Positions 1,547-20,897 are shown, numbered from the stretch's first letter. The stretch is 64,000 nucleotides of DNA from Patescibacteria group bacterium (GCA_038065095.1 JBBTRR010000001.1:113546-177545), one strand, 5' to 3'. Numbers and translations are program-made. Notes: generated by a model from the letters alone, not told the origin.

Positions 1547-1617
1547 CTATAGAGGATTAAGCCTCTATAGTATTAACTAAACATTTTAGCACGAGAATAC
1601 GATCGTATTCTCGTGCT
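1547..1617. terminator. Two tandem hairpins after ftsZ. The second is a member of the TACGATCGTA-core palindrome family and is followed by a T-tract.
   Basis: CTATAGAGG (1547-1555) pairs with CCTCTATAG (1562-1570). A perfect 30-bp palindrome AGCACGAGAA-TACGATCGTA-TTCTCGTGCT lies at 1588-1617, then ATTTTTG. Confidence 0.6.
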
Positions 1618-1660
1618 ATTTTTGTTGAAACAAAAATGTATTCGTGGTAGATTATTAATT

Positions 1661-1879
1661 ATGAAAAAGCAGTTTACTGTGGTTTATAAAAAAAGAGGCA
1701 AGTGGTATGTGGGCTGGGTAGAAGAAGTTCCTGGCGCAAATTCACAGGCCAAAACCTTAAAAGGGCTTAAAGAAAATTTGAATGAAGCCTTAAGTTTGGT
1801 TTTGAAATCAAACAGAAGTATTTTAGAACAGGAACTAGGCGGAAAGTTAGTAAGGGAATCGTTAGTAGTTTCTTACTGA
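1661..1879 (+). CDS. hicB: HicB-family antitoxin (UPF0150-like)
   Basis: The 72-aa product MKKQFTVVYKKRGKWYVGWVEEVPGANSQAKTLKGLKENLNEALSLVL matches the HicB N-domain pattern. Its stop overlaps the hicA start (ATGA). The ORF-track start at 1613 lies inside the ftsZ terminator, so the internal ATG at 1661 is preferred. Confidence 0.6.
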   Translation: MKKQFTVVYKKRGKWYVGWVEEVPGANSQAKTLKGLKENLNEALSLVLKSNRSILEQELGGKLVRESLVVSY

Positions 1880-2070
1880 TGAAACGGATAGATTTAGTTA
1901 AACATATAATTATTCACGGATGTGTTTTTGTCCGAGAAGGCGCTAAACATAGCGTCTTTTTTAATCCTAAAACAAGACAAACTTCTACAGTACCTCGGCA
2001 CAGTGAGGTCGATAAGTTTCTAGCTCGAAAAATATGCCGAGATTTAGGCGTAGAGGAAATAAAGAAATAA
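1879..2070 (+). CDS. hicA: HicA-family mRNA interferase toxin
   Basis: The 63-aa product ...GCVFVREGAKHSVFFNPKTRQTSTVPRHSEVDKFLARKICRDLGV follows the HicA pattern GSHxxxxxPxxxxxxTVPxH. Confidence 0.65.
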   Translation: MKRIDLVKHIIIHGCVFVREGAKHSVFFNPKTRQTSTVPRHSEVDKFLARKICRDLGVEEIKK

Positions 2071-2074
2071 AATA

Positions 2075-2110
2075 CCCGCTCCGATATTGTCGGGGCGGGG
2101 TTTGTTTTTG
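2075..2110. terminator. Bidirectional hairpin terminator between hicA (+) and a small membrane protein gene (-)
   Basis: CCCGCTCCGA (2075-2084) pairs with TCGGGGCGGG (2090-2099), loop TATTG, then GTTTGTTTTTG. Confidence 0.5.
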
Positions 2111-2113
2111 GGT

Positions 2114-2320
2114 CTAGGTTTTTGTGACAGGACATGAATCTTTTTTGGCTTGATTCTGTGTTGGTTCGGTAAACAGCTCGATGATTCTAGCTATACACAT
2201 ACCAGAGAGAATAGCCAGTGATAATTTGGCATATTCTGGGCCTGCTAATACCAGTAAAGCTGGAGCGATAAAGAAGAAAGTCATCAGCATTAAAAAACCA
2301 TATAGCGCATCCTTGTTCAT
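2114..2320 (-). CDS. Small membrane protein (68 aa, 2 predicted TM helices)
   Basis: AAGGAG RBS lies 8 nt upstream of the ATG on the minus strand. The product has hydrophobic helices LMLMTFFFIAPALLVLAG and LSLAILSGMCIARIIELF. Confidence 0.45.
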   Translation of the reverse strand: MNKDALYGFLMLMTFFFIAPALLVLAGPEYAKLSLAILSGMCIARIIELFTEPTQNQAKKDSCPVTKT

Positions 2321-2440
2321 TATGCAGACTCCTTTTCTTAAGGTTTTTACTTACCTGATCAAGATGGAATTGTTAATTCTATCGAAGTGGGACTTCAATA
2401 GAAGTTATTTTTTCTTTCTAGGTATGTTGCCTCCCCTTTT

Positions 2441-2623
2441 TTAATATTCAGAATCAATTGGTAATGGTATGCCGTATGTTTCTATGGCCTCCCTAAGACG
2501 ATCAAATTCTTCTTGCGGTTTTTCTTGGAGTGCTTTTAGAGCTTTCTTCAAACTGATAGAGTGGTAAGGTGTTCTTGTTGTTCTGTTTCCACCTCGATCC
2601 TCTGAAATTTTTCTTTTAGCCAT
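2441..2623 (-). CDS. Hypothetical small basic protein (60 aa)
   Basis: Internal start MAKRKISEDRGG... is preceded by a GAGGAG RBS. This is preferred over the longer 87-aa ORF-track call. Confidence 0.35.
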   Translation of the reverse strand: MAKRKISEDRGGNRTTRTPYHSISLKKALKALQEKPQEEFDRLREAIETYGIPLPIDSEY

Positions 2624-2802
2624 GCACTGTTCTCCTCGAAGGAAGTGTTTGGAGTTCTTACAACTCCGTTTAGAAAAATCCAAGTAGTTAAAGATCCTGC
2701 CCATACATATACAGCTATGTTTTCGTTTATCAAATAAGCAAGAAAGGTAAAACCAAATATAGGTACTAAAGAGAGTCTTGTAGCCATATCTCCTTTTTGC
2801 AT
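2548..2802 (-). CDS. Hypothetical membrane protein. It overlaps 2441-2623 in another frame, so one of the two may be spurious or a frameshift may be present.
   Basis: The 84-aa ORF has an N-terminal TM segment MATRLSLVPIFGFTFLAYLI. Confidence 0.25.
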   Translation of the reverse strand: MQKGDMATRLSLVPIFGFTFLAYLINENIAVYVWAGSLTTWIFLNGVVRTPNTSFEENSAWLKEKFQRIEVETEQQEHLTTLSV

Positions 2803-3108
2803 AAGCCCTCCTTCTAATTTTGAGAATTTTTATTAAGGAACTTTATTAAATTAAAGCAGTCTAAATTTTTCTTGTCAAAGTTGTCAATTTTTATGCATTT
2901 ATCTGTGGATATCCGTTTTAAAAGTTAAGGGTGTAAAATGAATTTAAGTAGTTTAAATTTTATAAAAAAATGCGGTTCGGATTTTTTGCAATTAGCCCTT
3001 GAGTTTAGAAGTCTCTGGTAGTTTTGGTCGTCTGGAGACTTTTTGATTCAAGGTTTTCCCTTGAATAAGGTGGATTCTGGTTGCAAGCTAACGAATCTCA
3101 TAAAAAAT

Positions 3109-5946
3109 ATGGGAAATTCTTCTATTGCCGATCGCGTCAAACGCGACGAGTCGGGCAAACGCGATTCGTCAACGAATAAAATTTTTTTAGTTAAAAGATA
3201 TTTTACTAAGCCCAATGTTCACCCTTACGATGAATTTAAATGGGAAAAGCGAGATATAAAAATATCTGGCCCGCAAGGCACGTTGGTAGATGCTAAAAAT
3301 TTAGAATTTCCAAAATTTTGGTCTCATAACGCGGCTAGTATTACGGGTTCCAAATATTTTCGAGGTTCGGGCGATAAACGTGAAACTTCGGTTAAGCAGA
3401 TGATAAACCGTGTGGTAAAAAATATTACTGCATGGGGCGAATCGTCTGGTTATTTTAATACAAAAACCGAAGCCAAAGCGTTTGAAGACGAGCTAACTCA
3501 TTTGTTGGTTTACCAAAAATCGGCGTTTAATAGCCCTGTTTGGTTTAATGTGGGTATAAAAGAAAAGCCACAGTGTTCGGCTTGTTTTATTTTAAGCGTA
3601 GACGATAGTATGGAATCTATAATGGATTGGATTTCTACCGAAGCTAGAATTTTTAAAGGAGGTTCGGGGGCTGGTATAAATTTATCGGCATTACGTTCTT
3701 CAAAGGAACCATTGTCGCATGGTGGTTTTTCTTCTGGCCCAGTTTCTTTTATGCGTGGAGCGGATTCGGTAGCGGGCATGATAAAATCTGGTGGTGCTAC
3801 ACGCCGTGCCGCTAAAATGGTTTTGTTAAATATAGATCATCCCGATGTAATGGAATTTATTCGTTGCAAAGCCGAAGAAGAAAAAAAAGTTAGGGCTTTT
3901 ATATCCTCTGGTTACAATATGCAAAATTTGAACGAGCCAGCTTGGTCATCTATTCAATATCAAAATGCCAATAATTCTGTGCGCTTGTCGGACGAATTCC
4001 TAAAAGCTGTAGAGGAAGACAAAGAATGGAGTACTAAATTTATTACCACCGGAAAAATTGCCAACACTTATAAAGCTCGCGAACTTATGCATGAAATTTC
4101 TTTGGCGGCTTGGGAATGTGCTGATCCTGGGGTGCATTATAAAACCACAATAGATAAATGGCATACGTCTTCTAACACTGGGCCAATCAATGGCTGTAAC
4201 CCATGCAGTGAATATATGCACCTAGATAATTCGGCCTGCAATTTATCTTCTATAAATTTAATTCATTTCTTGGCCGAAGATGGAAGTTTTAAGGTTAAAG
4301 ATTTTGTTCAAGCGGTAGATGTTATGATTTTGGCACAAGAAATTATTGTAGGGCATTCTTCGTATCCAACTCCAAAAATAGAAGAAACCGCACACAATTT
4401 TAGAGAATTAGGTTTAGGTTTTACAAACTTGGGCGGATTATTAATGGCTAAAGCTTTGGCTTACGATTCTAACGAGGCTCGGGCTTGGGCGGGTGCTATA
4501 ACTGCGCTTATGACCGGCGAAGCTTATAGATTATCGGCAGTGATGGCTTCAAAAATTGGTGCACATAATGGCTACGCCATAAACAAAGAACCTCAATTAA
4601 AAGTTATCGGTATGCATCGCGATAAAGTAAAAGAAATAAATCCAAAGGCAATGGATGATAAAAAACTTTTAAAAACTGCGGGTGACACTTGGGTGGAAGC
4701 ATTTAATTTGGCTAAAAAACATGGGGTTAGAAATTCTCAAGTAACTGTTATTGCACCAACTGGCACGATTGCCTTAATGATGGATTGCGCTTGTACAGGT
4801 GTTGAACCTTTATTTGCCCCATTAATTTATAAACAACTTGTAGGTGGTGGTTATATGAAATTTGTGGCCGACACTATTCCTTTGGCTTTAAAAAAACTTG
4901 GATATTCTACAAGCCAGAACGAAGAAATAATGAAATATATAGAAGAAAAAGGTATTGTGGAAGGTGCGCCAAATTTAAAAGAGGAACACTTGGCAATTTT
5001 TGATTGCGCAGTTAAGCCGGCCGCTGGCACAAGATCGATTCATTGGCAGGGTCACGTTAAAATGGTGGCGGCGGTTCAACCGTTTATTTCGGGTGCGATT
5101 TCTAAAACATTTAATATGGACGAAGGAACCACTGTGGAAGAAATTCAAGAAGCTTACATAATGGGTTGGAAATTGGGCTTAAAAGCTTTTGCGGTTTACC
5201 GAGATGGTTGTAAAGCGGCTCAACCTTTATCTACTAAGAAAAAGGAAAAAGATTCTACATCGATTGAAGCCAAAGCAGAGGCCGAGGTTAAGACTGTTAA
5301 TGTTGTACCACAACAAAGAAAACTTCCAGCTACTCGTCTTTCCGAAACTCATAAGTTTACAATTGCGGGGCATCAAGGTTTCTTAACGCATAGTATATAC
5401 GATGACGGCACGCTTGCCGAAATATTTATTCGTATTGCTAAACAAGGTTCAACTTTAGCCGGATTGTTAGATACATTCGCTATTTCTGTTTCTATGGCGT
5501 TGCAACACGGCGTGCCTTTAAAAAAATTATGTCACCAATTTATACACGGGCGTTACGAGCCGATGGGTTTTACCGAAAACGCCAATATTCCAATGGTGAG
5601 TTCCATAACCGATTATATTTTTAAATATTTAGCTTTAAGATTTTTACAGGCCGATGATTTAGCTGAATTTGGTTTAGATTCTGCCAATAGAATAGAAACT
5701 CATATGCCTTCCATTAAAGATAATTCATCCGAAGCAAGTGGCTTGATTATGGAGAGTTTAGCGGCTAAAGAACCTGTGGTGGTTGCAACAGTTGCCCAAC
5801 CCGAGGTTGGTCAGCCTAGGGCTGAAAAAACAGTTGGTGTAATTTATGCGGGAACCGTCTGCAAACTTTGCGGTGGTATGATGATTCGCACTGGCACTTG
5901 CTTAACCTGCAGGCAGTGTGGAGAAGCGAATGGGGGGTGTTCCTAG
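3109..5946 (+). CDS. nrdJ: Class II (adenosylcobalamin-dependent) ribonucleoside-triphosphate/diphosphate reductase with a C-terminal Cys-rich zinc-ribbon tail
   Basis: RNR hallmarks read from the translation: SACFIL, the active-site loop NPCSEY, and GLGFTNLG. It is a single ~945-aa chain with no separate beta subunit nearby. The C-terminus is CKLCGGMMIRTGTCLTCRQCG. The ORF could start at 3043, but the ATG at 3109 is preferred. Confidence 0.9.
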   Translation: MGNSSIADRVKRDESGKRDSSTNKIFLVKRYFTKPNVHPYDEFKWEKRDIKISGPQGTLVDAKNLEFPKFWSHNAASITGSKYFRGSGDKRETSVKQMINRVVKNITAWGESSGYFNTKTEAKAFEDELTHLLVYQKSAFNSPVWFNVGIKEKPQCSACFILSVDDSMESIMDWISTEARIFKGGSGAGINLSALRSSKEPLSHGGFSSGPVSFMRGADSVAGMIKSGGATRRAAKMVLLNIDHPDVMEFIRCKAEEEKKVRAFISSGYNMQNLNEPAWSSIQYQNANNSVRLSDEFLKAVEEDKEWSTKFITTGKIANTYKARELMHEISLAAWECADPGVHYKTTIDKWHTSSNTGPINGCNPCSEYMHLDNSACNLSSINLIHFLAEDGSFKVKDFVQAVDVMILAQEIIVGHSSYPTPKIEETAHNFRELGLGFTNLGGLLMAKALAYDSNEARAWAGAITALMTGEAYRLSAVMASKIGAHNGYAINKEPQLKVIGMHRDKVKEINPKAMDDKKLLKTAGDTWVEAFNLAKKHGVRNSQVTVIAPTGTIALMMDCACTGVEPLFAPLIYKQLVGGGYMKFVADTIPLALKKLGYSTSQNEEIMKYIEEKGIVEGAPNLKEEHLAIFDCAVKPAAGTRSIHWQGHVKMVAAVQPFISGAISKTFNMDEGTTVEEIQEAYIMGWKLGLKAFAVYRDGCKAAQPLSTKKKEKDSTSIEAKAEAEVKTVNVVPQQRKLPATRLSETHKFTIAGHQGFLTHSIYDDGTLAEIFIRIAKQGSTLAGLLDTFAISVSMALQHGVPLKKLCHQFIHGRYEPMGFTENANIPMVSSITDYIFKYLALRFLQADDLAEFGLDSANRIETHMPSIKDNSSEASGLIMESLAAKEPVVVATVAQPEVGQPRAEKTVGVIYAGTVCKLCGGMMIRTGTCLTCRQCGEANGGCS

Positions 5947-5962
5947 CTAGCTTTTAGGATTT

Positions 5963-5996
5963 ACCCAGTAACGCATACGAATGTACGTTACTGGGT
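5963..5996. terminator. Hairpin terminator after nrdJ, shared with the convergent minus-strand ORF
   Basis: ACCCAGTAACG (5963-5973) pairs with CGTTACTGGGT (5986-5996). A T-rich run follows. Confidence 0.55.
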
Positions 5997-6070
5997 TAGC
6001 TTCGTTAGCTTTTTAGGAAAATAAAAAGACCGCCGCTTGGATTTTTCCAAACGGCGGAGTGAACCTATAA

Positions 6071-6379
6071 CTATCCGATTTCTATCCTGTTATTATTACC
6101 GATTATGGTAATGGTGCCTTTTTCTTTGTCGATCGCGAATCTGCTCAAGTTTTCTGAAAGTTTGTGTACTTTCTTTGGAAACATCTCGAACGCTTTCAGG
6201 ATGATATTCCACTTTACGAGGTCAAATTCTTCAGAAGATATTACTATGTTTTCATCCCGATCTTGGAACAGTTTGGGTAGTGATTCGTTTAATGTATCCA
6301 TATCTCCTTCGGTTTTTTCACTGATTTTCACCACCAATTTAGCGAGCATAAACAATGACAAGTATAATAGCCTGAACAT
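6071..6379 (-). CDS. Hypothetical small protein with an N-terminal hydrophobic segment
   Basis: The 102-aa ORF has a GAGGAG RBS 9 nt upstream. Its N-terminus is MFRLLYLSLFMLAKLVV. Confidence 0.4.
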   Translation of the reverse strand: MFRLLYLSLFMLAKLVVKISEKTEGDMDTLNESLPKLFQDRDENIVISSEEFDLVKWNIILKAFEMFPKKVHKLSENLSRFAIDKEKGTITIIGNNNRIEIG

Positions 6380-6450
6380 GACGGGTATCTCCTCGGTTTG
6401 AGTTAAGGAACGATGGCAAAAATATAGCAGTTATAAACAAATAAAGTCAA

Positions 6451-7023
6451 ATGCTAATTGTAGTCACTGGTAATGGTAAGGGAAAGACCACGAGCGCACT
6501 TGGGCAGGCTTTAAGAGTGGTTGGCGAGGGCGGAAAGGCTGTAATGTATCAGTTTATAAAAGGGCCGTGGGTTTCGGGCGAGGATGTCCTAATCTCAAAA
6601 ATCAAATCTCAAAAATCAAAAATAAAAGACAATAAATTATTAGAGGGTCTGGAGAATTGGTATGATTTTGACATTATTAAGGGTGGCAAAGGTTTTGTTG
6701 GAATATTGGGCGATTCGTATCCAAAATCAGTTCACATCAAGGCGGCCGAAGAAACTTGGGGTGTTGCCAAAAAAGCCATAGAATCTAAAAAATACCAGTT
6801 AGTTGTTTTAGACGAAATTAATGTAGCTATAAAATTAGGCTTGTTAAAAATAAGCCCAGTATTTTCTTTTTTGAAAAAATATCGTGGAATTGTTAATATT
6901 ATGGTTACAGGGCGAGACGCCCACAATAAGCTTATAGAACTTGCTGATTTGGTTTCGGAGGTTAAAGAAATAAAGCACCCTTTTAATAAAGGTGTTTCAG
7001 CCAGAAAGGGAGTGGAGTACTAA
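6451..7023 (+). CDS. cobO: Cob(I)yrinic acid a,c-diamide / corrinoid adenosyltransferase (CobA/CobO/BtuR family)
   Basis: P-loop VVTGNGKGKTTSALGQALR..QFIKG and the C-terminal VLDEIN...TGR pattern are characteristic of CobA. The gene contains a 14-mer x2 tandem repeat at 6591-6618. Confidence 0.85.
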   Translation: MLIVVTGNGKGKTTSALGQALRVVGEGGKAVMYQFIKGPWVSGEDVLISKIKSQKSKIKDNKLLEGLENWYDFDIIKGGKGFVGILGDSYPKSVHIKAAEETWGVAKKAIESKKYQLVVLDEINVAIKLGLLKISPVFSFLKKYRGIVNIMVTGRDAHNKLIELADLVSEVKEIKHPFNKGVSARKGVEY

Positions 7024-7028
7024 AAATT

Positions 7029-7148
7029 ATGTTTGCCCTAGGTTTAATAATTGGTTTTTTAGCAGGGTTTTTCTTAGGCGGAACTATCGCTGTTATTTCG
7101 TCTGCAAACTGGGAAGAAATTACAAACTTTTTTTCTGGTAAAAAATAA
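7029..7148 (+). CDS. Tiny hydrophobic peptide (39 aa)
   Basis: Product MFALGLIIGFLAGFFLGGTIAVISSANWEEITNFFSGKK is below the ORF-track length cutoff. It is a tandem paralog of the next peptide. Confidence 0.35.
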   Translation: MFALGLIIGFLAGFFLGGTIAVISSANWEEITNFFSGKK

Positions 7149-7149
7149 A

Positions 7150-7239
7150 ATGCTTATTGGTTTATTAATTGGTTTTATAGTTGGTTTAATACTTTCGCTT
7201 TTAATTGCTTTTGCCATGGCTTCAAAAAATGGATTTTAA
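7150..7239 (+). CDS. Tiny hydrophobic peptide (29 aa), paralog of 7029-7148
   Basis: Product MLIGLLIGFIVGLILSLLIAFAMASKNGF. The start lies 1 nt after the previous stop. Confidence 0.3.
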   Translation: MLIGLLIGFIVGLILSLLIAFAMASKNGF

Positions 7240-7262
7240 TTTAATTTTAATTAGTAAAAAAT

Positions 7263-7292
7263 ATACCGAATCTACGATCGTAGATTCGGTAT
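7263..7292. repeat. 30-bp perfect palindrome of the TACGATCGTA-core family; bidirectional terminator-like
   Basis: ATACCGAATC-TACGATCGTA-GATTCGGTAT, located between convergent genes. Confidence 0.6.
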
Positions 7293-7337
7293 ATTCTGTC
7301 TTTAAATATAAATCTACTATCCTTTAATCCTTTCCAT

Positions 7338-7901
7338 CTAATCAACTTGGGCTCGGCGGACGTAGGATCCTGTTCTAGTATCTACTTCTATTTTTTCACC
7401 GGCCTCAATAAATAATGGAACTTTTATTTCGGCACCGGTTTCTAAAATGGCGTCTTTTAATGCACCTTGCACAGTGTCGCCACGAGCGGCTGGCGGAGCA
7501 TCTTTTACTTCTAGAATAACTTTAATTGGTAATTCTAAAGATATTGGTTTTCCTTTAAATAAAAAAATATCTGCCGGCATATCCTTTTTAAGGAATTTAA
7601 CTTTATCTTCTAAGGTTTCTTCACTAAAACTCATTTTTTCTCCACCTTCAGCCTGAAAGAAAAACTCATTTTTGGTGCGATAGGTAAATTTAGATTTTAA
7701 TCGTTCTATATCGGCTTCCTTAATGCTGTCGGATTGTTGGAAAGTTTCCGAACGAACTTTGCCCGTAATTACATTGCGGATTTTAGTTTGCATAACTGGC
7801 CTTCTTTGAGCAACTTTATTAAAGTTGGATTCTAAAACTTGGTAGGGTTCGCCCTCTAAATCTATTAAAACGCCTGGTCTTAGATTGTTCATTGATAACA
7901 T
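7338..7901 (-). CDS. efp: Translation elongation factor P
   Basis: The 187-aa product has GEPYQVLESNF, ITGKVRSETF, GDTVQGALKDAILETGAEIKVPLFIEAGEKIEVDTRTGSYV and the KOW/OB pattern of EF-P. Start chosen at MLSMNNLRPG. Confidence 0.85.
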   Translation of the reverse strand: MLSMNNLRPGVLIDLEGEPYQVLESNFNKVAQRRPVMQTKIRNVITGKVRSETFQQSDSIKEADIERLKSKFTYRTKNEFFFQAEGGEKMSFSEETLEDKVKFLKKDMPADIFLFKGKPISLELPIKVILEVKDAPPAARGDTVQGALKDAILETGAEIKVPLFIEAGEKIEVDTRTGSYVRRAQVD

Positions 7902-8009
7902 AATAATAGCGACACTAATTACGAATACACACAAATTTACAAATGAATTTTATTCGTGTCATTCGGGTGAATTCGCGTATTGGTGTCGCGATGAGTATAC
8001 TAAAAGATA

Positions 8010-9161
8010 ATGAAATCATCAAGAGCTTTAGCGGGTGTTTCTTTTGGATTTTTAATAGGTGTATTGGCTCAATCTATTATCGGTTTTTATTTTTGGCTGG
8101 TTTTTATTTTTATTTTAATAGCTATAATTTGTGCTGTTTTAGAAATTTTTGGCGGTTCTGATAAATTATTTTTAGCTTTTATAATTTTATTTTCTGCAGC
8201 GCTGGGTTTTTTAAGAGCGGGAACTTACCACGAAGATTTTTCTCTAAACGAAAAAACTTTTTGGAATATTTCGCGCGAATATTTGGTTAATCGCACAAAA
8301 TCAATTTTACCGCAAAATGAAGGTGCTCTTTTTAATGCTATGGTTTTTGGTTATGAAAAAGATGTTTCTAGTAAAATCAAGAACGATTTTAATATAACTG
8401 GTACTCGGCATGTTTTGGCGATTTCTGGTATGAATATTTCTATAATCGCCTTAATGATTATGGATTTTGCGATTGGTATTGGCTTATGGCGGAAGCAAGC
8501 TTTTTATGTGGCAGTTCTGGCTGTAATCGCTTTTATATTTTTAGTGGGTTCGCCAGCTTCGGCGGTGCGCGCCGGCATAATGGGCATACTTTTACTTTGG
8601 GCCAAAAATAAAGGCAGGTTGGTGCAGGCTTGGCGGCCAATAATGTTGGCCGCGTTTTTTATGGTGGCGCTAAACCCACGGCTTTTGGTTTTTAGTATTG
8701 GTTTTCAACTTTCTTTTTTGGCGGTTATTGGCATTGTTTATTTTAAAAATTTTTGGGACAAAATTTTGTTTTGGATTCCCATAAAACCAATGCGCGAATT
8801 AGTGGTGCTTTCTATGGCGGCGCAAACCACCACTTGGCCAGTTATGGTTTATAATTTTGGCACGCTTTCGGCTATAAGCCCAGTAGCCAATATTTTTGTG
8901 GTGCCGATGCTTAACCCGATAATGTTTTTAGGTTTAGGGTTTGTGGCGGTTTCTTGGAATAGTTATTTAGCGCAAATATTTTTATGGCCAGCTTGGCTGA
9001 TTTTAAAAGCTAATATAAAAATTGTAGATTTTTTTGGTTCGTTTAGTTGGGCTAGCATTAACTTAGGTAAAACCGGTTTAATTATTTTTATTTTTTATCC
9101 TCTTATTTATCTATTTTGGTTATACTTAGAAAAACACGGTTACAATGATTCAATTAACTAA
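8010..9161 (+). CDS. comEC: ComEC/Rec2 competence channel, membrane (competence) domain portion
   Basis: Polytopic membrane protein with the ComEC core motif NITGTRHVLAISGMNISIIA. Confidence 0.8.
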   Translation: MKSSRALAGVSFGFLIGVLAQSIIGFYFWLVFIFILIAIICAVLEIFGGSDKLFLAFIILFSAALGFLRAGTYHEDFSLNEKTFWNISREYLVNRTKSILPQNEGALFNAMVFGYEKDVSSKIKNDFNITGTRHVLAISGMNISIIALMIMDFAIGIGLWRKQAFYVAVLAVIAFIFLVGSPASAVRAGIMGILLLWAKNKGRLVQAWRPIMLAAFFMVALNPRLLVFSIGFQLSFLAVIGIVYFKNFWDKILFWIPIKPMRELVVLSMAAQTTTWPVMVYNFGTLSAISPVANIFVVPMLNPIMFLGLGFVAVSWNSYLAQIFLWPAWLILKANIKIVDFFGSFSWASINLGKTGLIIFIFYPLIYLFWLYLEKHGYNDSIN

Positions 9162-9972
9162 AAGCTTTATTTTAGGTATTTTAACTTTTATTACAGTTTT
9201 AATTTTTTGGTTTGTTTTTGAAAAAGATAATCAAAAAGCAGAAGTTATTTTTTTAAATGTGGGCCAAGGCGATAGCCAGTTAATAGTTTTACCAAGCGAC
9301 ATACAAATTTTAATAGATGGCGGGCCTAACACCGATATTTCGGCAAAAATTTCTAAATATTTACCTTTTTACGACAAAGATATAGAGTTGATAATTTTAA
9401 CCCACCCGCACGCCGATCATTTGCGCGGGTTACTTTCTGTTTTAAAAGATTATAAAGTTCAAAACTTTATGTTTGCAGGTGCTAATTACGAAAGCAAAAT
9501 TTATGCCGAGTTTTTAGATGCGCTTAAAAAAGAGGGTAGTAATGTCTATGTAGCAGAAGCTGGAGATTTAATTAGTTATGAAAAAGATCCAATTTTAAAA
9601 ATATTAACCCCTTTAAAAAATACACTAAGCAAAAATTTTAAAGGCATACACGAAAGTATGGTGGTGAGCGAACTTAGTTTGGGCAATAAAAAGTTTTTGT
9701 TAACAGGCGATATGGAAGAAATATTAGAACGACAACTTATCGCATCAAAGACGGTTGAAGACGTAGATGTTTTAAAAATTGGGCATCATGGTTCTAAAAC
9801 TTCTACATCGGAAAATTTTTTAAAAATTGTTAAACCCGAAGAAGCTATCATTCAAGTCGGCCGTAATTCCTATGGCCACCCTACAAAGATTATTTTAGAT
9901 AGGCTAAATAAGTTTGGAGTTAAAATCTTCCGTAACGATCAGTTGGGCGATATAGTTTACCGAGCCAAATAA
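9145..9972 (+). CDS. comEC: ComEC C-terminal metallo-beta-lactamase domain protein; separate ORF overlapping the upstream part by 17 nt
   Basis: FLNVGQGDSQLIVLP, HPHADHLRGL and KIGHHGSKTSTS are the MBL-fold motifs of the ComEC C-domain. Confidence 0.8.
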   Translation: MIQLTKSFILGILTFITVLIFWFVFEKDNQKAEVIFLNVGQGDSQLIVLPSDIQILIDGGPNTDISAKISKYLPFYDKDIELIILTHPHADHLRGLLSVLKDYKVQNFMFAGANYESKIYAEFLDALKKEGSNVYVAEAGDLISYEKDPILKILTPLKNTLSKNFKGIHESMVVSELSLGNKKFLLTGDMEEILERQLIASKTVEDVDVLKIGHHGSKTSTSENFLKIVKPEEAIIQVGRNSYGHPTKIILDRLNKFGVKIFRNDQLGDIVYRAK

Positions 9973-9987
9973 CAAATCTAAATCAAA

Positions 9988-10027
9988 AACGTATCCCGAG
10001 CTTACGATCGTAAGCTCGGGATACGTT
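9988..10027. repeat. 40-bp perfect palindrome of the TACGATCGTA-core family after comEC
   Basis: AACGTATCCCGAGCT-TACGATCGTA-AGCTCGGGATACGTT. Confidence 0.65.
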
Positions 10028-10177
10028 ATGAGTTGAGATAAAAATAGCCCATAAATAGCTAGTAAATAAGCCAAGTTTTGAACTATAACAAGCTATTGAC
10101 TTTTATCTTTGTAATATGGTATTATTATGGTGTACTTTAATTTACCAAAAATAATCTAATCAACCAAAGGAGGAGAA

Positions 10178-10351
10178 AATGCTTGGAAGTATTAGTGGCA
10201 CGATCATAGTCGTTGGTGCAGTGGCTATATTTTTCGGAGCCTTCGATCTGTGGGTGGATAGTCCCAGTAACTGGAAAAAGATTGCCACAAAAATCGTGGG
10301 CGGTGTAGTGGTGGTCTGTATTGGCATGTTGATGAAAAAGTTCGGTTTGTA
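10178..10351 (+). CDS. Small membrane protein (57 aa)
   Basis: AGGAGG RBS lies 7 nt upstream. Product MLGSISGTIIVVGAVAIFFGAFDLW...VGGVVVVCIGMLMKKFGL. Confidence 0.45.
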
Positions 10352-10397
10352 ACAGTCTTATTTTTTTGAAGTAAACCTTTTTCCGTATCGGAGGCCT

Positions 10398-10517
10398 TAT
10401 GAAAAAGATGGCTATGCCGGTGTGGAGGTGGTGGGTCAAGGAATACTCTCAAGAAATGTTCATCGGTGCTGCTTTCTTGGCGCTGGCGATTCCGTTTATC
10501 AAATTCTTTTTTGGATA
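10398..10517 (+). CDS. Tiny membrane peptide (39 aa)
   Basis: GGAGG RBS. Product MKKMAMPVWRWWVKEYSQEMFIGAAFLALAIPFIKFFFG. Confidence 0.35.
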
Positions 10518-10526
10518 GGAGAAAAA

Positions 10527-10829
10527 ATGGCTACAAAACCTAGTATAGAAAAGCTCAGAGAATTGGCAAGCAGAAGGAACGTGGCTTACGAAATTAGCAG
10601 GTGGTATTATGAACCATGTTCTTTGTATCAAGAAGTTCAAGAAATCCAGAAAATAGGATTTAAGTCTCAGGCGGCTAGGTGGTTAGAATCTATGACCTCT
10701 GCTGGTATGCAGTTCGGTACTGCTTCAAAAGAAGAAAGATTGAAAGAAGCCCAAAGTATGGCTGATCTTGCCGGTATACCTCTTAAAGAGATTACTGACG
10801 AGATAGGTCTATCGGGCGTGCTTTTGTAG
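10527..10829 (+). CDS. Hypothetical soluble protein (100 aa)
   Basis: AGGAGA RBS. This is the internal start MATKPSIEKLRELASRR... of the 135-aa ORF-track entry. Confidence 0.45.
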   Translation: MATKPSIEKLRELASRRNVAYEISRWYYEPCSLYQEVQEIQKIGFKSQAARWLESMTSAGMQFGTASKEERLKEAQSMADLAGIPLKEITDEIGLSGVLL

Positions 10830-10878
10830 TATTTCCCTCGGACAAATCGTCCATCACTTTAATCAAAGGATAATTCTG

Positions 10879-11202
10879 ATGATAATCACGATAGGCGAAC
10901 TGGTTCGTGACATAAATGGCACAAACCTCGCATGCGTGCCTATGGGAGGGGAAAGTTTCGCATCTCTAACAAGTGAAGAGCGTCTGACGCTTTGGCGTTT
11001 CGATGGGGTAGCTCTGGAGGTTGATGCACAGGCGTTACCGCTTCATGTTTATCTGATGGGCGGTTCGATGAAACGACTGGCCATCTATCCTCGTAGTGGT
11101 TGCATCAAAATTCCTGGAACAAGGTGTATTTCACTCAGCGATGAAGAAAATGGTCACGAACTGGTAATACATCGTGCACCGAAGGATTATATTTACCCTT
11201 GA
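10879..11202 (+). CDS. Hypothetical protein, compositionally atypical (GC roughly 50% against a background near 35%)
   Basis: 107-aa ORF. The GC shift is judged by eye. It is followed by a GAAA-tetraloop terminator. Confidence 0.4.
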   Translation: MIITIGELVRDINGTNLACVPMGGESFASLTSEERLTLWRFDGVALEVDAQALPLHVYLMGGSMKRLAIYPRSGCIKIPGTRCISLSDEENGHELVIHRAPKDYIYP

Positions 11203-11218
11203 CCAAACTGTACACAGT

Positions 11219-11251
11219 CCTCGACGAAAGTCGGGGGCTTTTTTATTTTTT
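11219..11251 (+). terminator. Rho-independent terminator with a GAAA tetraloop
   Basis: CCTCGAC-GAAA-GTCGGGG followed by CTTTTTTATTTTTT. Confidence 0.55.
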
Positions 11252-11271
11252 CAAACCATGGTTTGAAAAAA
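11246..11271. repeat. 26-bp perfect palindrome TTTTTTCAAACCATGGTTTGAAAAAA
   Basis: All 13 base pairs are complementary. It is centred on CCATGG, between the terminator and the next operon. Confidence 0.6.
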
Positions 11272-11354
11272 TATCCTGAGCGAGTTTGCGAGTCGAAGGA
11301 TTACATAAATAGGTAGGACTTTTTTTATTCTAAAAATTTGCTATTATCATCTTT

Positions 11355-11603
11355 ATGGAGATATACTTTACGGATCATGCTAGGTATCAGTTTAAAGAAA
11401 GAAATATATCTCTGGCCGAAGTGGATAGAACCGTCAGGAGACCCGATAAAATATTAAAACAACTATCAGGCAGAATCCGTGCCGTGCGAAGGTTCAAGAA
11501 ACAAAGAAAAGTTTATGCGTTGGTGGCGGTATATGAAGTTAGAAAACACAGAATAGAGGTTGTAACGGTTTTCCTTACTAGCAAGATTAAAAAATATTTA
11601 TGA
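11355..11603 (+). CDS. DUF4258-family protein (putative toxin of the DUF4258/DUF2283 toxin-antitoxin pair)
   Basis: 82-aa product MEIYFTDHARYQFKERNISLAEVDRTV...; family assignment by recall of the DUF4258 pattern. Its stop overlaps the next start (ATGA). Confidence 0.5.
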   Translation: MEIYFTDHARYQFKERNISLAEVDRTVRRPDKILKQLSGRIRAVRRFKKQRKVYALVAVYEVRKHRIEVVTVFLTSKIKKYL

Positions 11604-11818
11604 AACTACATTACGATAAATCAGAAGATGCTTTTTATGTTCGGTTTGATGACAGCCCCTACGCTCAAAGCGATGAGATAGATGAAGGGGTTATTTTTGA
11701 CTACGACAAAAAAGGCAAAATAATTGGTATTGAAATTCTGGATGCCTCCAAAAAACTTTCGCCATCTTTTAGGGCGTCTTTGCGGCTTAAAGAGATTCCT
11801 GTTAGTGTGGGAGCGTAG
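11600..11818 (+). CDS. DUF2283-family protein (putative antitoxin partner)
   Basis: Product MKLHYDKSEDAFYVRFDDSPYAQSDEIDEGVIFDYDKKGKIIGIEILDASKKL matches the DUF2283 consensus (YDxExDxLYIxL...GxIxGIEIL). Confidence 0.55.
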   Translation: MKLHYDKSEDAFYVRFDDSPYAQSDEIDEGVIFDYDKKGKIIGIEILDASKKLSPSFRASLRLKEIPVSVGA

Positions 11819-11878
11819 TTTTTATTTTTAACAAAAGTATCCTCACATAAGAGGATTTTTTATTGTCCTAGTAAATTT

Positions 11879-12469
11879 ATGAATCATCCAAAAGAAGAAA
11901 CAACATTTTTAATGGTTAAGCCTGATGGTGTTAAGCGCGGCTTAACTGGAGAAATTATAAAACGTATAGAGCAGAGGAATTTAAAGTTGGTTGCGCTTGG
12001 CATGGAAAAACCAACTCGCGCCAAAATAGATGGGCATTACCCTAAAGATGCTAAATGGGTTCACCGCTTAGGCGAAAAAACTTTAGCTACATACGAAAAA
12101 TATGGTTACGATGCCAAAAAAGAATTAGGTACAACTGATCCAGATAAAATTGGTAAAATGGTTCGTAGTTGGCTTTTAGATTTTATGTGTTCTGGCCCGG
12201 TGGTAAAAATGGTTATAAAAGGTGTGCATGCGGTGGATATGGTTCGTAAATTAGCAGGAAGCACGATGCCTTCGGCGGCGGAGATGGGCACAATTCGCGG
12301 AGATTATTCGGTGGATTCCCCAGCTTCGGCTAACCGAGATAAGCGTTCGGTGCATAATATTGTGCATGCTTCGGAAACTCCAGAAGAAGCTAGACACGAA
12401 ATTGGATACTGGTTTAGAAAAGATGAGCTTTGCGATTATAAGCGAACGGATGAAGATTTAACTTTTTAA
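11879..12469 (+). CDS. ndk: Nucleoside diphosphate kinase, long form (196 aa)
   Basis: ETTFLMVKPDGVKRGLTGEIIKRIEQ and NIVHASETPEEARHEIGYWF are Ndk motifs. Confidence 0.8.
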   Translation: MNHPKEETTFLMVKPDGVKRGLTGEIIKRIEQRNLKLVALGMEKPTRAKIDGHYPKDAKWVHRLGEKTLATYEKYGYDAKKELGTTDPDKIGKMVRSWLLDFMCSGPVVKMVIKGVHAVDMVRKLAGSTMPSAAEMGTIRGDYSVDSPASANRDKRSVHNIVHASETPEEARHEIGYWFRKDELCDYKRTDEDLTF

Positions 12470-12477
12470 GGTTTTTT

Positions 12478-12559
12478 AAAAATCACTCCGAGCAGCGACA
12501 TGGAGTCCTCTCAATTGTATATTTGGTCATCTCCATGAATGCTACTCGGAGTGATTTTT
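12478..12559 (+). ncRNA. Candidate structured RNA element, copy 1: nested stems around a conserved 25-nt loop
   Basis: Outer stem AAAAATCACTCCGAG pairs with CTCGGAGTGATTTTT. Inner stem CATGGAG pairs with CTCCATG. The loop is TCCTCTCAATTGTATATTTGGTCAT. It lies in the ndk 3' region before the terminator at 12592. Confidence 0.35.
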
Positions 12560-12591
12560 GGGTAAGTGGTTTTAAAAATTAAATAAAAAAT

Positions 12592-12616
12592 CCGAGATCA
12601 AAAGTCTCGGGTTTTT
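12592..12616 (+). terminator. Rho-independent terminator
   Basis: CCGAGA-TCAAAA-GTCTCGG followed by GTTTTTT. Confidence 0.55.
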
Positions 12617-12633
12617 TATTGAACCCCGTAAGA

Positions 12634-12670
12634 GTTTTACACTTATAGTTTAGTGTAAAACATTTTTTTA
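12634..12670 (+). terminator. Second hairpin with a T-tract
   Basis: GTTTTACACT (12634-12643) pairs with AGTGTAAAAC (12652-12661), then ATTTTTTT. Confidence 0.45.
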
Positions 12671-12721
12671 GCGGTTTAGACTTTACTTTGAAAAATACTC
12701 TAACAGTAAAATTCTAACGGG

Positions 12722-12905
12722 GTGAACTTGGTCGGGATTTTAAAAGTATGTTCAGCCTAGTTAATAGGTGGGTTTCCGCAACGATCAACGCCCGAACGAA
12801 TCAGCACATAGTCGCAATTTAGGAATCCCTAGAACAATTATTTTGAGCTAAAACTTTTAAAATCCTTAATCCCGACTTTACGTCGAGACCAACCACCAAG
12901 TTCAC
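12722..12905. ncRNA. Candidate long-hairpin ncRNA (~184 nt) closed by an 11+7 bp terminal stem; 6S-like rod architecture, strand undetermined
   Basis: GTGAACTTGGT-CGGGATT (12722-12739) pairs with AATCCCG (12868-12874) and ACCAAGTTCAC (12895-12905). No credible ORF lies in the region. Confidence 0.25.
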
Positions 12906-12977
12906 TTTTATTATAGCTCCACAACGTATCAATTCAAGTATGTTTATCCACCTAGTTTTTGTAGGTTTTTTGTTTTT

Positions 12978-13060
12978 AAAACATAACCCTAAATAGACGA
13001 TGCGGAGGCCTCTCAATTGTAGAATTGGTCATCTCCGCGATGCTATTTGGGGTTATGTTT
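12978..13060 (+). ncRNA. Candidate structured RNA element, copy 2 (same family as 12478-12559)
   Basis: Outer stem AAACATAACCCTAAATAG pairs with CTATTTGGGGTTATGTTT. Inner stem GCGGAG pairs with CTCCGC. The loop GCCTCTCAATTGTAGAATTGGTCAT is 22/25 identical to copy 1. Confidence 0.35.
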
Positions 13061-13101
13061 AGGGAGTAAAAGATAGAATACAAAAATTATTTTTGTTATA
13101 G

Positions 13102-13773
13102 TTGTTTTGTATGTCTTTTATAGATTACGCACAGGATTTTACTAAAAAAGAATCGCTTTCAGAAAAAAAGAAGCGGATGCTTAAGGTTATTAAATTTTTA
13201 AAAGGCAAATTCCCCGAGGCTAAAATTGCCTTAAGTTTTGAAAACCCCGTTCAACTTTTGGTGGCGGTAATTCTTTCGGCGCAATGTACAGATAAAAAAG
13301 TTAACCAAGTAACAGAAAGTATATTTAAAAAATACAAAACCTCGGCAGATTTTGCCAAATTAACCCAAACTCAATTAGAAAAACTAATCCATTCGTGCGG
13401 ATTTTACAGGGCCAAGGCTAAAAATATAATTGGTGCTATAAAAATTATAGAAAATAAGTTTGGCGGCAAGGTGCCAAACACAATGGCAGAAATTTTGATC
13501 TTACCTGGTGTGGCTAGAAAAACTGCAAATGTTGTTTTGGGTAACGCTTACAATGTGGTTGACGGTATAGCTGTGGATACGCATATGATTAGAATAAATC
13601 AAAAATTAGGGTTTACTCGCCAAAAAGATCCAGTTAAAATTGAACGCGATTTAATGCAGATAATTCCTAAAAACGAATGGTTTAGTTATACTTATAGAAT
13701 AATAAACTATGGTCGCGCTGTTTGTACGGCGCGGCATAAAAAATGTGAGTGCAAACTTTATCAAATTAAATAA
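13102..13773 (+). CDS. nth: Endonuclease III (HhH-GPD DNA glycosylase with a 4Fe-4S loop)
   Basis: LPGVARKTANVVL is the helix-hairpin-helix motif. GIAVDTHMIR and the C-terminal CTARHKKCECKLYQ (C-x6-C-x2-C-x5-C) complete the pattern. Confidence 0.85.
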   Translation: MFCMSFIDYAQDFTKKESLSEKKKRMLKVIKFLKGKFPEAKIALSFENPVQLLVAVILSAQCTDKKVNQVTESIFKKYKTSADFAKLTQTQLEKLIHSCGFYRAKAKNIIGAIKIIENKFGGKVPNTMAEILILPGVARKTANVVLGNAYNVVDGIAVDTHMIRINQKLGFTRQKDPVKIERDLMQIIPKNEWFSYTYRIINYGRAVCTARHKKCECKLYQIK

Positions 13774-13798
13774 AAAGGGAATTAATGGAAGAAATGGG

Positions 13799-14923
13799 AT
13801 GAAAGGGGTTGTTTTTCTTTTTCTTTGTTTTCTGTTGCTTGATTTTAGTATTTCGGCTGAGGCGGGTAAGGTGGGCGATATTAAAAAAAGAATCAAGACA
13901 AAAGTTTCGGTTTTTTTACCTCAAAACAGGCAAGCTCAAATGCAATCGGTAAAAACGGGCATATTTTTTAGCCCAATGGAGACTGTTATTTTGGGCGGAC
14001 CAGAACAGAACAGTATTATACAAAATACCAAAGTTGAGTTTACTTTAGACGGTTGGCAAGTTTTGCCCTTCGAAAAAACAAATCGTTTTGATGTTTGGTT
14101 GATTGGCTACGATACTGGTTGGCGGGCGGTTAGTAGCAAAGTCACCTATAATCTTCCTGCGGGTAAAAAGACTTATACGTTATTGGCTCGTGCCAAAAAC
14201 GCTCAAGGTGAATACGACAATACGGCCGTAATCAGAAGTTTTTTGGTAAATGTTTCCGATAACTTTGGAAAAGTTAAAATTAGCAATGTTAATTACAGAG
14301 GATCTTCTAATAAACCTAACTACGAAAAAGTATCTATTGTTAATCGTTCTAGTGATTTAGGTGTAAACATTACTGGTTGGACGTTAAAAACAAAGCGTTT
14401 TAGTAATTCGTTTCAAATTCCTCAAGCATCCAGAGTGTATAATCCAAGGGATTTAAATGCTACAGATAATATTGTTTTAAATAAGGGCGGAGTTGCAGAT
14501 TTTTTTGTAGGCAAGAGAAGCCCATTGAGTGTGAATTTTCAAGAAAATGCTTGTGATGGTTATATATCTAGCGCTTTTGAAAGTTATGATTCTCTTTCCA
14601 GTACAGGCAGGTGTAATTTACCAAGTCGATCCGATTATAATAGTTACAGTATATCTTGCAGGGGGTATCTTAATGGTATAAGTTCATGCAAAGAGCCAAG
14701 GTTAGAATATTTTAGCTTTATTAACGAACCTTCTTGCCGAGAATTTATTACTAAAAATTATAATTACCAAGCTTGTGTGGAGCGTTCTAAAAATCAAGCT
14801 AGTTTTTATTTAGGCAAGTGGAAAATATATTTGGGACATAACGAAGAAATTTTAGATGATCTTGATGATACTTTATATTTATATGATTCTATGGGGTTGT
14901 TGGTAGATACCTATAGTTATTAA
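13799..14923 (+). CDS. Secreted lamin-tail-domain (LTD) protein with a Cys-rich C-terminal region
   Basis: Signal peptide MKGVVFLFLCFLLLDFSISAEA. LTD-like segment NVNYRGSSNKPNYEKVSIVNRSSDLGVNITGWTLKT. Ten or more Cys in the last 120 aa. Start set at the internal ATG 13799 to avoid overlap with nth. Confidence 0.6.
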   Translation: MKGVVFLFLCFLLLDFSISAEAGKVGDIKKRIKTKVSVFLPQNRQAQMQSVKTGIFFSPMETVILGGPEQNSIIQNTKVEFTLDGWQVLPFEKTNRFDVWLIGYDTGWRAVSSKVTYNLPAGKKTYTLLARAKNAQGEYDNTAVIRSFLVNVSDNFGKVKISNVNYRGSSNKPNYEKVSIVNRSSDLGVNITGWTLKTKRFSNSFQIPQASRVYNPRDLNATDNIVLNKGGVADFFVGKRSPLSVNFQENACDGYISSAFESYDSLSSTGRCNLPSRSDYNSYSISCRGYLNGISSCKEPRLEYFSFINEPSCREFITKNYNYQACVERSKNQASFYLGKWKIYLGHNEEILDDLDDTLYLYDSMGLLVDTYSY

Positions 14924-14950
14924 TGGTTGGGTAATTAATTAGAGATAAAA

Positions 14951-14982
14951 TAGCACGAGCTTACGATCGTAAGCTCGTGCTA
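14951..14982. repeat. 32-bp perfect palindrome of the TACGATCGTA-core family; bidirectional terminator-like
   Basis: TAGCACGAGCT-TACGATCGTA-AGCTCGTGCTA. Confidence 0.65.
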
Positions 14983-20582: not shown

Positions 20583-20585
20583 ATA

Positions 20586-20611
20586 ATCCCCCCGACCTAG
20601 GTCGGGGGGAT
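20586..20611 (+). terminator. Rho-independent terminator after clpB
   Basis: ATCCCCCCGACC-TAGG-TCGGGGGGAT is a perfect palindromic hairpin, followed by TTTCC. Confidence 0.65.
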
Positions 20612-20897
20612 TTCCACAGCAAAGTTGTTTTAAGGTTTTAATTTTTATGTTAATATTATTTGAGCATAGTACCCTGAAATTATATAGGTTTTACGTCGTT
20701 GTTTAGTTTTTTCCACAGTTTATAAGTTTGTATAAACTAGACACGTTTTTCTTTGTGCTATAATGACATTAAACATAAGTGCAAGGGTTTCCTGTTTAAT
20801 AAGCTGTTCGGAAACTCGGTGTTGTTTTGCCTACCTGATTTGGAAAAGAACGCATTTTGACATAAAAATCAAACTGTTTCAAATTATAATAAATTAT

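Follow-up and report, generated by a model that had tools for sequence, protein, structure and literature searches.

Repressors of the PaaX type, described in E. coli and Pseudomonas, are built from three parts, namely a winged helix, a motif for dimerisation and a domain for the effector; they repress their own promoter by steric hindrance and bind a box of the form TGATTC-N27-GAATCA (PMC9493321). This study was concerned with a stretch of 64,000 nucleotides from a Patescibacteria bacterium (the window), in which four perfect palindromes share the core decamer TACGATCGTA, and with the gene for a small PaaX-like protein, P0063, which lies on the same 384-kb contig about 57 kb past the end of the window (by coordinate arithmetic) and is bracketed by palindromes of the same type. 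P0063 resembles PaaX in its PaaX_M (Cas2-like) domain, in its best structural match, PaaX 8A39, and as a presumed dimer with a palindromic target, and a site is predicted over its own promoter, which would imply autorepression as at Px (PMC9493321). It differs in being a mini-PaaX, with neither the C-terminal phenylacetyl-CoA-binding domain nor paa genes nearby. The palindromes also differ from the PaaX box: they are contiguous, CGATCG-centred, perfect and 28-42 bp long, a second one lies at the stop codon, several paralogues have distinct cores, and further copies are dispersed at the 3' ends of genes.

Repetitive extragenic palindromic (REP) sequences, REPINs and the REP-associated tyrosine transposases (RAYTs) offer a second comparison. 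An earlier note on this DNA, made from the sequence alone, had put forward a REP-like family as one possibility. In form the label holds, because these short palindromes are dispersed, extragenic and placed at gene ends, flank a single-copy chromosomal cognate gene, fall into paralogue-specific families and turn over rapidly between relatives. P. fluorescens is said, in work of Bertels and Rainey from 2011, to hold three RAYT/REPIN families. Membership does not hold. The palindromes are perfect and orientation-free, have no GTAG/GTGG head and are most conserved at the centre; they number from a few to about a dozen per genome, as against tens to hundreds; and the gene that they flank is PaaX_M/Cas2-like, not a Y1/HUH transposase. 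No Y1_Tnp was found in the window, nor were the cognate RAYT, CGATCG methyltransferase or restriction system for which the note had proposed a search.

Families of conserved terminator hairpins include the paired DNA uptake sequences of Neisseria or uptake signal sequences of Haemophilus within terminators and the TRIT hairpins of mycobacteria. These are also conserved-sequence hairpins 3' of genes, often for both strands; the present family differs in having no lone half-sites, in its low density, in the mostly absent U-tract and in its link to the gene of a putative DNA-binding protein. The cyanobacterial HIP1 element (GCGATCGC) shares the palindromic CGATCG centre, and the GG, AG and TG core types described below contain its octamer. 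Unlike HIP1, the present motif is not hyper-abundant, stands only within long intergenic palindromes and belongs to another phylum, and GCGATCGC does not occur in the window.

Window palindromes and the bracketed gene

The decamer TACGATCGTA occurs exactly four times in the window, at 1598, 7273, 10003 and 14962. The mean expected by chance is 0.02, and none of 100 dinucleotide-preserving shuffles reached four, so the cores are commoner than composition predicts and the four core-sharing palindromes of the earlier note are real. Extension outward from the core gives perfect palindromes of 32, 36, 40 and 32 bp, all of them intergenic and near stop codons:

1587-1618, copy 1: 32 bp perfect palindrome TAGCACGAGAA-TACGATCGTA-TTCTCGTGCTA
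7260-7295, copy 2: 36 bp perfect palindrome AATATACCGAATC-TACGATCGTA-GATTCGGTATATT
9988-10027, copy 3: 40 bp perfect palindrome AACGTATCCCGAGCT-TACGATCGTA-AGCTCGGGATACGTT
14951-14982, copy 4: 32 bp perfect palindrome TAGCACGAGCT-TACGATCGTA-AGCTCGTGCTA

Copies 3 and 4 have the limits first described, and copies 1 and 2 are slightly longer. The arms are self-complementary throughout, as the note had stated; the differences between copies are not arbitrary, since the arms are homologous to one another and follow ..C[AC]CGA[GA]-NN-core. Neither degenerate copies nor lone half-sites occur in the window, and TACGATC is confined to the four palindromes.

In many loci the palindromes form pairs 620-660 bp apart, and the enclosed open reading frame (ORF) always encodes one protein of about 190 aa, 69-78% identical between loci. 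A profile search of all fetched loci gave 18 ORF matches (some from duplicate loci), and all 18 had CGATCG-centred palindromes at their ends. The bracketed genes comprise about nine distinct ones reached via the palindrome scan, a 39%-identical homologue (L104) and a Verrucomicrobial gene (L061), whose product has PaaX_M and PaaX_C domains; the same bracketing in the latter places the arrangement in two phyla. As a control for retrieval bias, eight genes were picked by protein sequence alone and their loci then inspected. All eight were bracketed (P0055, P0063, P0079, P0047 with a second paralogue on the same contig, P0022, P0118 and P0097), the second paralogue on the P0047 contig being visible only at its 3' end, at the edge of the locus.

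The palindromes are specific to the paralogue. The species of the window has three paralogues, P0063 with core type TA-CGATCG and P0055 and P0079 with GG- and AG-CGATCG, and the same type stands at both sites of each:

P0063: upstream site TACTGAATC-TACGATCGTA-GATTCAGTA; downstream site imperfect, of the same type
P0055: upstream site ..CCCCGAGAT-GGCGATCGCC-ATCTCGGGG..; downstream site of matching type
P0079: upstream site TATATACTGAGTC-AGCGATCGCT-GACTCAGTATATA; downstream site of matching type

Further lineages have TG and AA core types. Since core types are paralogue-specific, the basic architecture is CGAG-N2-xy-CGATCG-y'x'-N2-CTCG, of which the decamer of the earlier note is one paralogue's type. 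All four window copies are of the TA type of P0063, and the inner 18 bp of copy 2 are identical to the upstream, operator-like site of that gene. Gene and site match by type at either end of every gene, and do so in two phyla, which demonstrates a specific relation between the two. Between the alternatives that the note had offered, this one-to-one pairing of palindrome types with bracketed PaaX-like paralogues favours a conserved protein-binding site inside terminator-type hairpins.

The upstream palindromes end 0-8 nt before a predicted extended -10 box (TGnTATAAT; L199, L201, L204 and L143), with the start codon close after; the adjacent boxes, identified as consensus matches, are TGGTATAAT and TGCTATAAT. 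For example, 7 nt separate the L199 palindrome at 5951-5978 from TGGTATAAT, after which comes the ATG, and in L201 the upstream site lies within a divergent promoter region. At the 3' end, the stop codon in most cases falls within the left arm of the downstream palindrome or precedes that palindrome by a few nt; in some genes (L199, L205) the distance is tens of nt. P0063 lies in the order MnmA-X-AlaRS, which is common to L022, L203, L204 and L206.

P0063 has 195 aa. The ~190-aa proteins match Pfam PaaX_M ("PaaX central Cas2-like domain") and, weakly, Cas2, and no PaaX_C domain was found in them. Compared with the domain layout of PaaX, this protein of the candidate phyla radiation has no effector domain and thus corresponds to PaaX minus that domain. 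The family is highly conserved. It comprises 758 homologues at E < 1e-5, of which almost all belong to Patescibacteria, often with two or three paralogues to a genome; their sources name them "hypothetical", "PaaX" or "Cas2". The motif WDxKWR..FDIPE is invariant, and the Asp of FDIPE occupies the Cas2 catalytic position. An AlphaFold model of P0063 (predicted local distance difference test, pLDDT, 80) has, at the N-terminus, a helical domain bearing a beta wing and, at the C-terminus, a domain in the order beta-alpha-beta-beta-alpha-beta; its best Foldseek matches are Cas2 proteins, VapD and PaaX (8A39), and a protein profile search against PDB sequences gave no match. In the searchable literature the motif appears only as primer or shRNA sequences, and PaaX is reported together with neither Cas2 nor Patescibacteria. 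We found no earlier description of the motif, of sites for this protein family or of PaaX-like proteins in Patescibacteria, absence from the searchable literature not being proof.

Covariation, placement and turnover across genomes

The window comes from the genome of an ultra-small bacterium of Hainich groundwater: its FtsZ is encoded in assemblies from 0.1-um filters of that groundwater, the 384-kb contig among them, and the homologues are those of Patescibacteria. The GC content is 34.6%. A scan of 185,579 species genomes with the pattern CGA-N3-core-N3-TCG gave 69 stretches in total, concentrated in a few genomes: a Minisyncoccia metagenome-assembled genome (MAG) with nine, a groundwater Parcubacteria MAG with three, and some Verrucomicrobiota. 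The Patescibacteria matches extend to perfect palindromes of 24-40 bp with homologous arms. Metagenomes gave at least 117 stretches, many from other Hainich wells, and 2.9 M viral contigs gave a single chance-like match, on which ground a phage origin was rejected. Copy number is low, with four in the 64 kb and about 9-12 detected in the MFD03232 MAG, and apart from the gene-bracketing copies none occurred in about 45 kb from further loci of this species. The AT-rich core is conserved among genomes of 35-49% GC. Rfam returned nothing but tRNAs above the gathering threshold and nothing credible at E <= 5.

Among the matches listed, 90 unique copies of the window's type were compiled, with the consensus cGTATnCnCGAG-NN-TACGATCGTA-NN-CTCGnGnATACg. 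Positions 3-6 from the core are fixed in this set by the search pattern, and the free positions are 1, 2 and 7-12. Each free position shows three to four alternative Watson-Crick pairs and 88-91% complementarity, which falls to the background level past position 12-13. G.T accounts for 14 of the 71 non-Watson-Crick pairs, its random share. Watson-Crick covariation with G.T at random share indicates that the symmetry is enforced on DNA or on both strands, and not by the folding of one-strand RNA.

Of about 55 genuine sites, 48 are intergenic. The usual distance from the preceding stop codon is 8-60 nt; the excess at convergent junctions is mild and non-significant among the 48 classifiable sites (31 tandem, 11 convergent and 6 divergent, against a background of 185, 39 and 53). 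In the window, the placement of all four copies past genes or between convergent genes was borne out. Copy 1 starts 41 nt past the ftsZ stop and ends 42 nt ahead of a hicB-like ORF, with a T5 run after it on the + strand. Copy 2 separates the convergent genes cobO (+) and efp (-), at 43 nt from the stop of efp, with a T-run that serves efp on the - strand. Copy 3 starts 16 nt past the stop of the ComEC Lactamase_B ORF and has a weaker T-run on the - strand side only, and copy 4 lies between a convergent gene with an LTD domain (+; stop 28 nt away) and murD (-), with T-runs on both sides. The RNA hairpins of the four copies have energies of -24 to -34 kcal/mol and z of -6.6 to -11 (copy 1, -24.3 kcal/mol and z = -7.7; copy 3, -33.6 kcal/mol; copy 4, -25.9 kcal/mol). 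A simple scan calls all four terminator-like, and a T-run of at least 4 stands on the relevant side in copies 1, 2 and 4. The genes around the copies are housekeeping genes: ftsZ, class II ribonucleotide reductase (RNR), cobO, efp, the two-ORF comEC, ndk, nth, the LTD-domain gene and murD.

Four relatives, with FtsZ identities of 96, 88, 84 and 78%, keep the synteny ftsA-ftsZ-RNR-cobO-efp-comEC. The 96% relative has the ortholog of copy 1 after ftsZ with the same arms and the core CTGCGATCGCAG for TACGATCGTA, a mirror-symmetric multi-base change. In that relative the exact 32-mer of copy 1 lies 4.6 kb away, within an insertion missing from the window genome. Non-orthologous places with the identical 32-mer are in L035, L049 and L207; it recurs base for base, twice, in a genome of 47-49% GC. 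The palindrome of copy 2 is absent from its slot in the 96, 88 and 84% relatives, and the first of these has an ordinary GC-rich hairpin terminator there. The cobO-efp interval of the 78% relative contains a complete PaaX_M gene, and the sites that bracket it are degenerate. The slot after comEC is usually occupied by a family member (e.g. in L207): the ortholog of copy 3 in L072, where ComEC is 63% identical, differs at two arm positions, both mirrored, and the orthologous position in L209 (13785-13820) holds a 36-bp perfect palindrome of the same architecture, GCATGAGCT-GG-CGTACG-CC-AGCTCATGC, which shows that even the central hexamer is open to change. From these differences it follows that sites are gained, lost, type-switched and swapped with ordinary terminators on short timescales, and that some positions are long-lived.

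Explanations of the pairing

We put at roughly 0.5 the probability that the window palindromes are dispersed cognate sites of P0063 which double as gene-boundary or terminator hairpins. Judged from sequence, direct binding by the encoded PaaX-like protein is the simplest reading of the pairing between types and paralogues, and the system would be a repressor-operator pair with REP/RAYT-like organisation. A symmetric P0063 dimer would bind the central ~22 bp, CGAG-NN-TA-CGATCG-TA-NN-CTCG, as double-stranded DNA, with the Cas2-like domain serving dimerisation, the PaaX-type N-terminal domain binding DNA, and no effector domain. At its own gene, one site would replace the -35 region beside the extended -10 box, a geometry that fits autorepression as by PaaX at Px, and the second would lie at the stop codon. 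In the terminator slots, the dispersed copies probably serve as boundaries, where a transcribed hairpin, a bound protein serving as roadblock or insulator, or both, would curb read-through both ways.

Quasipalindrome template switching is an established mutational process. Symmetry at positions that the protein need not read, the lack of a G.T preference and the mirror-symmetric type switch suggest a templated arm-to-arm correction, by such switching or by conversion between copies, which would also account for mirror-symmetric core-type switches. It would fit, too, the perfect palindromes without the core that lie in the window at 11244-11273 and 20585-20612.

Patescibacteria have tiny genomes and very few regulators, and their transcription control is almost wholly uncharted. 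The sites of P0063 would give this uncultivated phylum a candidate gene-boundary or autoregulatory system and are a natural example of palindromes evolving with mirror symmetry, and the readable palindrome type of each paralogue offers a testable protein-DNA recognition code in the bases flanking CGATCG.

Several points weigh against the P0063 reading. Perfect symmetry over 30-42 bp and covariation at bases that go unread are more than a dimeric operator needs, which calls for some additional process. Sites within one genome differ in NN and in the outer arms, which casts doubt on a single protein binding all of them, and a classical operator would be pointless between convergent genes, which is the position of two of the four copies in the window. 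A downstream T-run of at least 4 is present at only 6 of 30 tandem sites (20%) family-wide, although the T content on the transcription-downstream side of tandem sites is somewhat higher, at 4.8 versus 3.4 of 10 nt. The family as a whole therefore seems not to consist of canonical intrinsic terminators, despite the look of the AT-rich window copies; the terminator role suggested in the earlier note is plausible for three of those four and is not general. In the model, the N-terminal domain, a putative winged helix, has a pLDDT of 60-90, and the alignment to PaaX covers 111 residues at high rmsd. The invariant Asp of FDIPE hints at catalysis rather than mere dimerisation. Lastly, sites of high information content that come and go among close relatives resemble copied elements more than evolved operators.

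The main rival is a REP/RAYT-like system built on a different enzyme. Here a Cas2-like nuclease would read the extruded hairpin or cruciform, cut at or near CGATCG and copy or move the palindromes, so that the dispersed copies are non-autonomous mobile elements and the bracketed gene is a domesticated mobilising enzyme. We regard this as unlikely. In its favour, the gene is flanked by its own palindromes, and a genome holds several paralogues, each with its own family; the dispersed copies are extragenic, identical 32-mers stand at non-orthologous places of different genomes, and copies are polymorphic for presence at 96% FtsZ identity. A type B tandem or MITE-like (miniature inverted-repeat transposable element) relative exists in other metagenomes, the FDIPE Asp is invariant, and perfect palindromes of such information content are hard to evolve de novo. 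Against it stand the conserved MnmA-X-AlaRS synteny of the gene across lineages and the low copy number. Furthermore, no target-site duplications were seen, the arms within a genome are diverse, unlike recent copies of one master, some orthologous sites have been kept over deep divergence (ComEC), and the Cas2-like domain is a dimerisation module in PaaX proteins. More doubtful still is the full claim that the proteins, taken as winged-helix-turn-helix-Cas2-like, act catalytically on CGATCG-centred hairpins or cruciforms to generate, copy and type-switch perfect palindromes, as an analogue of REP/RAYT on a Cas2-fold nuclease. A catalytic Cas2-like domain would make the system much more interesting, since a Cas2 homologue with its own palindromic repeats outside CRISPR could inform the association of adaptation modules with repeats.

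Cas2 and VapD relatives include RNases, and most sites lie 8-60 nt past stops as very stable hairpins, which in eight related loci form the apex of a larger foldable element of ~115 nt. These facts would suit a system acting on RNA, in which transcribed hairpins (apical UACGAUCGUA) are bound or cleaved via the Cas2-like (RRM-like) domain to control the stability or processing of mRNA 3' ends. We hold this decidedly unlikely, given that G.U is not tolerated, that the loop is self-complementary, which RNA function does not require, that little covariation is seen in the outer stem of the ~115-nt element, and that the copies upstream of genes lie 5' of the -10 box (in L201 in a divergent promoter region), outside the gene's own transcript. 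Plain bidirectional intrinsic terminators, spread by common descent or conversion with no dedicated protein and only an incidental link to the PaaX-like genes, would explain the terminator-like positions, the T-runs in three of the four window copies, the interchange with ordinary terminators and the two core-less palindromic terminators of the same genome. This explanation is improbable: the link cannot be incidental when every PaaX_M gene, in two phyla, carries its paralogue's own core type at either end, the AT-rich core is kept at 35-49% GC, the U-tract is as infrequent as noted above, and some sites lie in divergent promoter regions. That the sites are targets of CGATCG-specific restriction-modification or methylation (a PvuI-type site, or HIP1-like biology) is highly improbable. 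The central CGATCG is invariant in nearly all copies and some core types contain GCGATCGC; however, CGATCG is neither avoided nor enriched in the window (8 observed, four of them the palindromes, against ~6 expected), no DNA methyltransferase or restriction gene lies there, an orthologous site has a CGTACG centre, and the conserved flanks and the gene bracketing would go unexplained.

Other candidates were rejected on particular grounds. HIP1 and CGATCG methylation or restriction were set aside on the absence of GCGATCGC, of a CGATCG skew and of a DNA methyltransferase or restriction endonuclease in the window; a DNA uptake sequence on the absence of lone half-sites; and a MITE of two terminal inverted repeats because the centre and not the ends is conserved, with no target duplications in the flanks. 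The likeness of TTAGCAC...GTGCTAA in copies 1 and 4 to CIRCE/HrcA fails on spacing and context and does not extend to the other copies. Sites of the parS, Noc, Ter, tyrosine-recombinase or protelomerase kind seem unlikely, since the four copies stand among essential genes and the family is dispersed over many contigs.

Neighbouring features and related elements

A promoter-like element lies directly 3' of copy 1 and 5' of the hicB-like ORF at 1661, and its geometry resembles that of the -10 boxes abutting palindromes 5' of PaaX-like genes (L199, L201):

1625-1653, + strand: promoter-like element, TTGAAA-17-TAGATT with TG extension (consensus match only)

Right after copy 1, a UPF0150/HicB-like ORF and a HicA toxin occupy 1661-2070, and a DUF4258/PBECR2 nuclease-like ORF lies at 11355-11603; these are small toxin-antitoxin-like genes near palindromes. 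ComEC in the window is encoded by two overlapping ORFs, for the Competence domain (8010-9161) and the Lactamase_B domain (9145-9972), and is split in all four relatives as well. The ftsZ-RNR interval is variable among close relatives. A reverse transcriptase (RVT_1) gene lies between ftsA and ftsZ in L209 (3092-4024), and the class II RNR of L210 (9985-13986) has a LAGLIDADG insertion (1333 aa versus 945-967 aa).

The four copies are confined to the first 15 kb, and the stretch from 15 to 64 kb holds none. The 26-64 kb region is a cluster of glycan or teichoic-acid type, with GT4 and GT2 glycosyltransferases, glycerophosphotransferases, sugar dehydrogenases/epimerases and small-molecule methyltransferases, and is nearly fully co-directional (34 of 37 ORFs on the + strand in 26001-64000). 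Intergenic gaps of at least 40 nt amount to 1.8 kb there versus 4.3 kb in 1-26 kb. The earlier note had taken the absence of copies from this cluster to be consistent with a different history, an argument that is not supported, because with so few gaps only about 1.7 sites are expected and finding none is unremarkable (P(0) ~0.18). The lower GC of the cluster (32.4% versus 37.8% in the remainder) is a separate fact and may or may not mark a different history.

The two window palindromes without the core are TATTTTTTCAAACCATGGTTTGAAAAAATA (11244-11273, 30 bp, CCATGG centre, at a gene end) and AATCCCCCCGACCTAGGTCGGGGGGATT (20585-20612, 28 bp, CCTAGG centre, directly after clpB). A comparable one in the same species has a CTTAAG centre (L194, 11256-11283). 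Perfect palindromy, including a self-complementary loop, seems to be a general habit of the terminator-like hairpins of this genome.

In eight groundwater contigs (L078, L087, L122 at 2820-2985, L137, L138, L169, L151 and L193) a TA-type palindrome forms the apex of the conserved ~115-nt element, which has an outer stem of 14-19 bp, CCCCGCCCTTGAGAAAGAT...ATCTTTCTCAAGGGCGGGG, at -60 kcal/mol and z = -8, with no Rfam match. Its assignment as a structured RNA was rejected, since covariation in the outer stem is too scant to separate an RNA from a DNA inverted repeat.

The type B relative is a high-copy element found in L077, L079, L092, L102, L108, L110, L111, L113, L131, L167 and L187 and on about 30 other short contigs of Ga0056115/6 and Ga0209568. 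Its arrays consist of tandem units with a 39-bp period, in which the core alternates with a second palindrome, AATTCGTCGTAACT-N-AGTTACGACGAATT, and carry a cap, TCGAAAAATCTTATGACGAATT, then AAAATCGGGCCCC, in a nested, MITE- or REPIN-like organisation.

Two contigs of 62% GC, L083 (nine TACGATCGTA cores in 13.9 kb) and L190, carry a short form, (C)GAGTC-TACGATCGTA-GACTCG, which stands 5' of CATCCCACGAAAGGAG with a start codon ~40 nt downstream and is repeated gene after gene. L083 is probably a plasmid or an integrative and conjugative element region, to judge by its genes for an ATP-dependent DNA ligase and for an anti-restriction protein of the ArdC type. Genomes of 66-70% GC hold dispersed AT-rich palindromes of 28-46 bp with the same core, for example GATATACCATTTCGATGA-TACGATCGTA-TCATCGAAATGGTATATC (L009, L019, L021 and L066, from one Verrucomicrobiota MAG; L036; L052 and L061). 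Some members are asymmetric only at the two core-adjacent bases or have arms of mixed subtype (L025 365, L046 7473, L071 1079, L126 938, L176 433 and L203 4356), for instance a left arm TAGCACGAGAA facing a right arm that is the complement of TAGCATGAGCT, and these look like hybrids of two sites.

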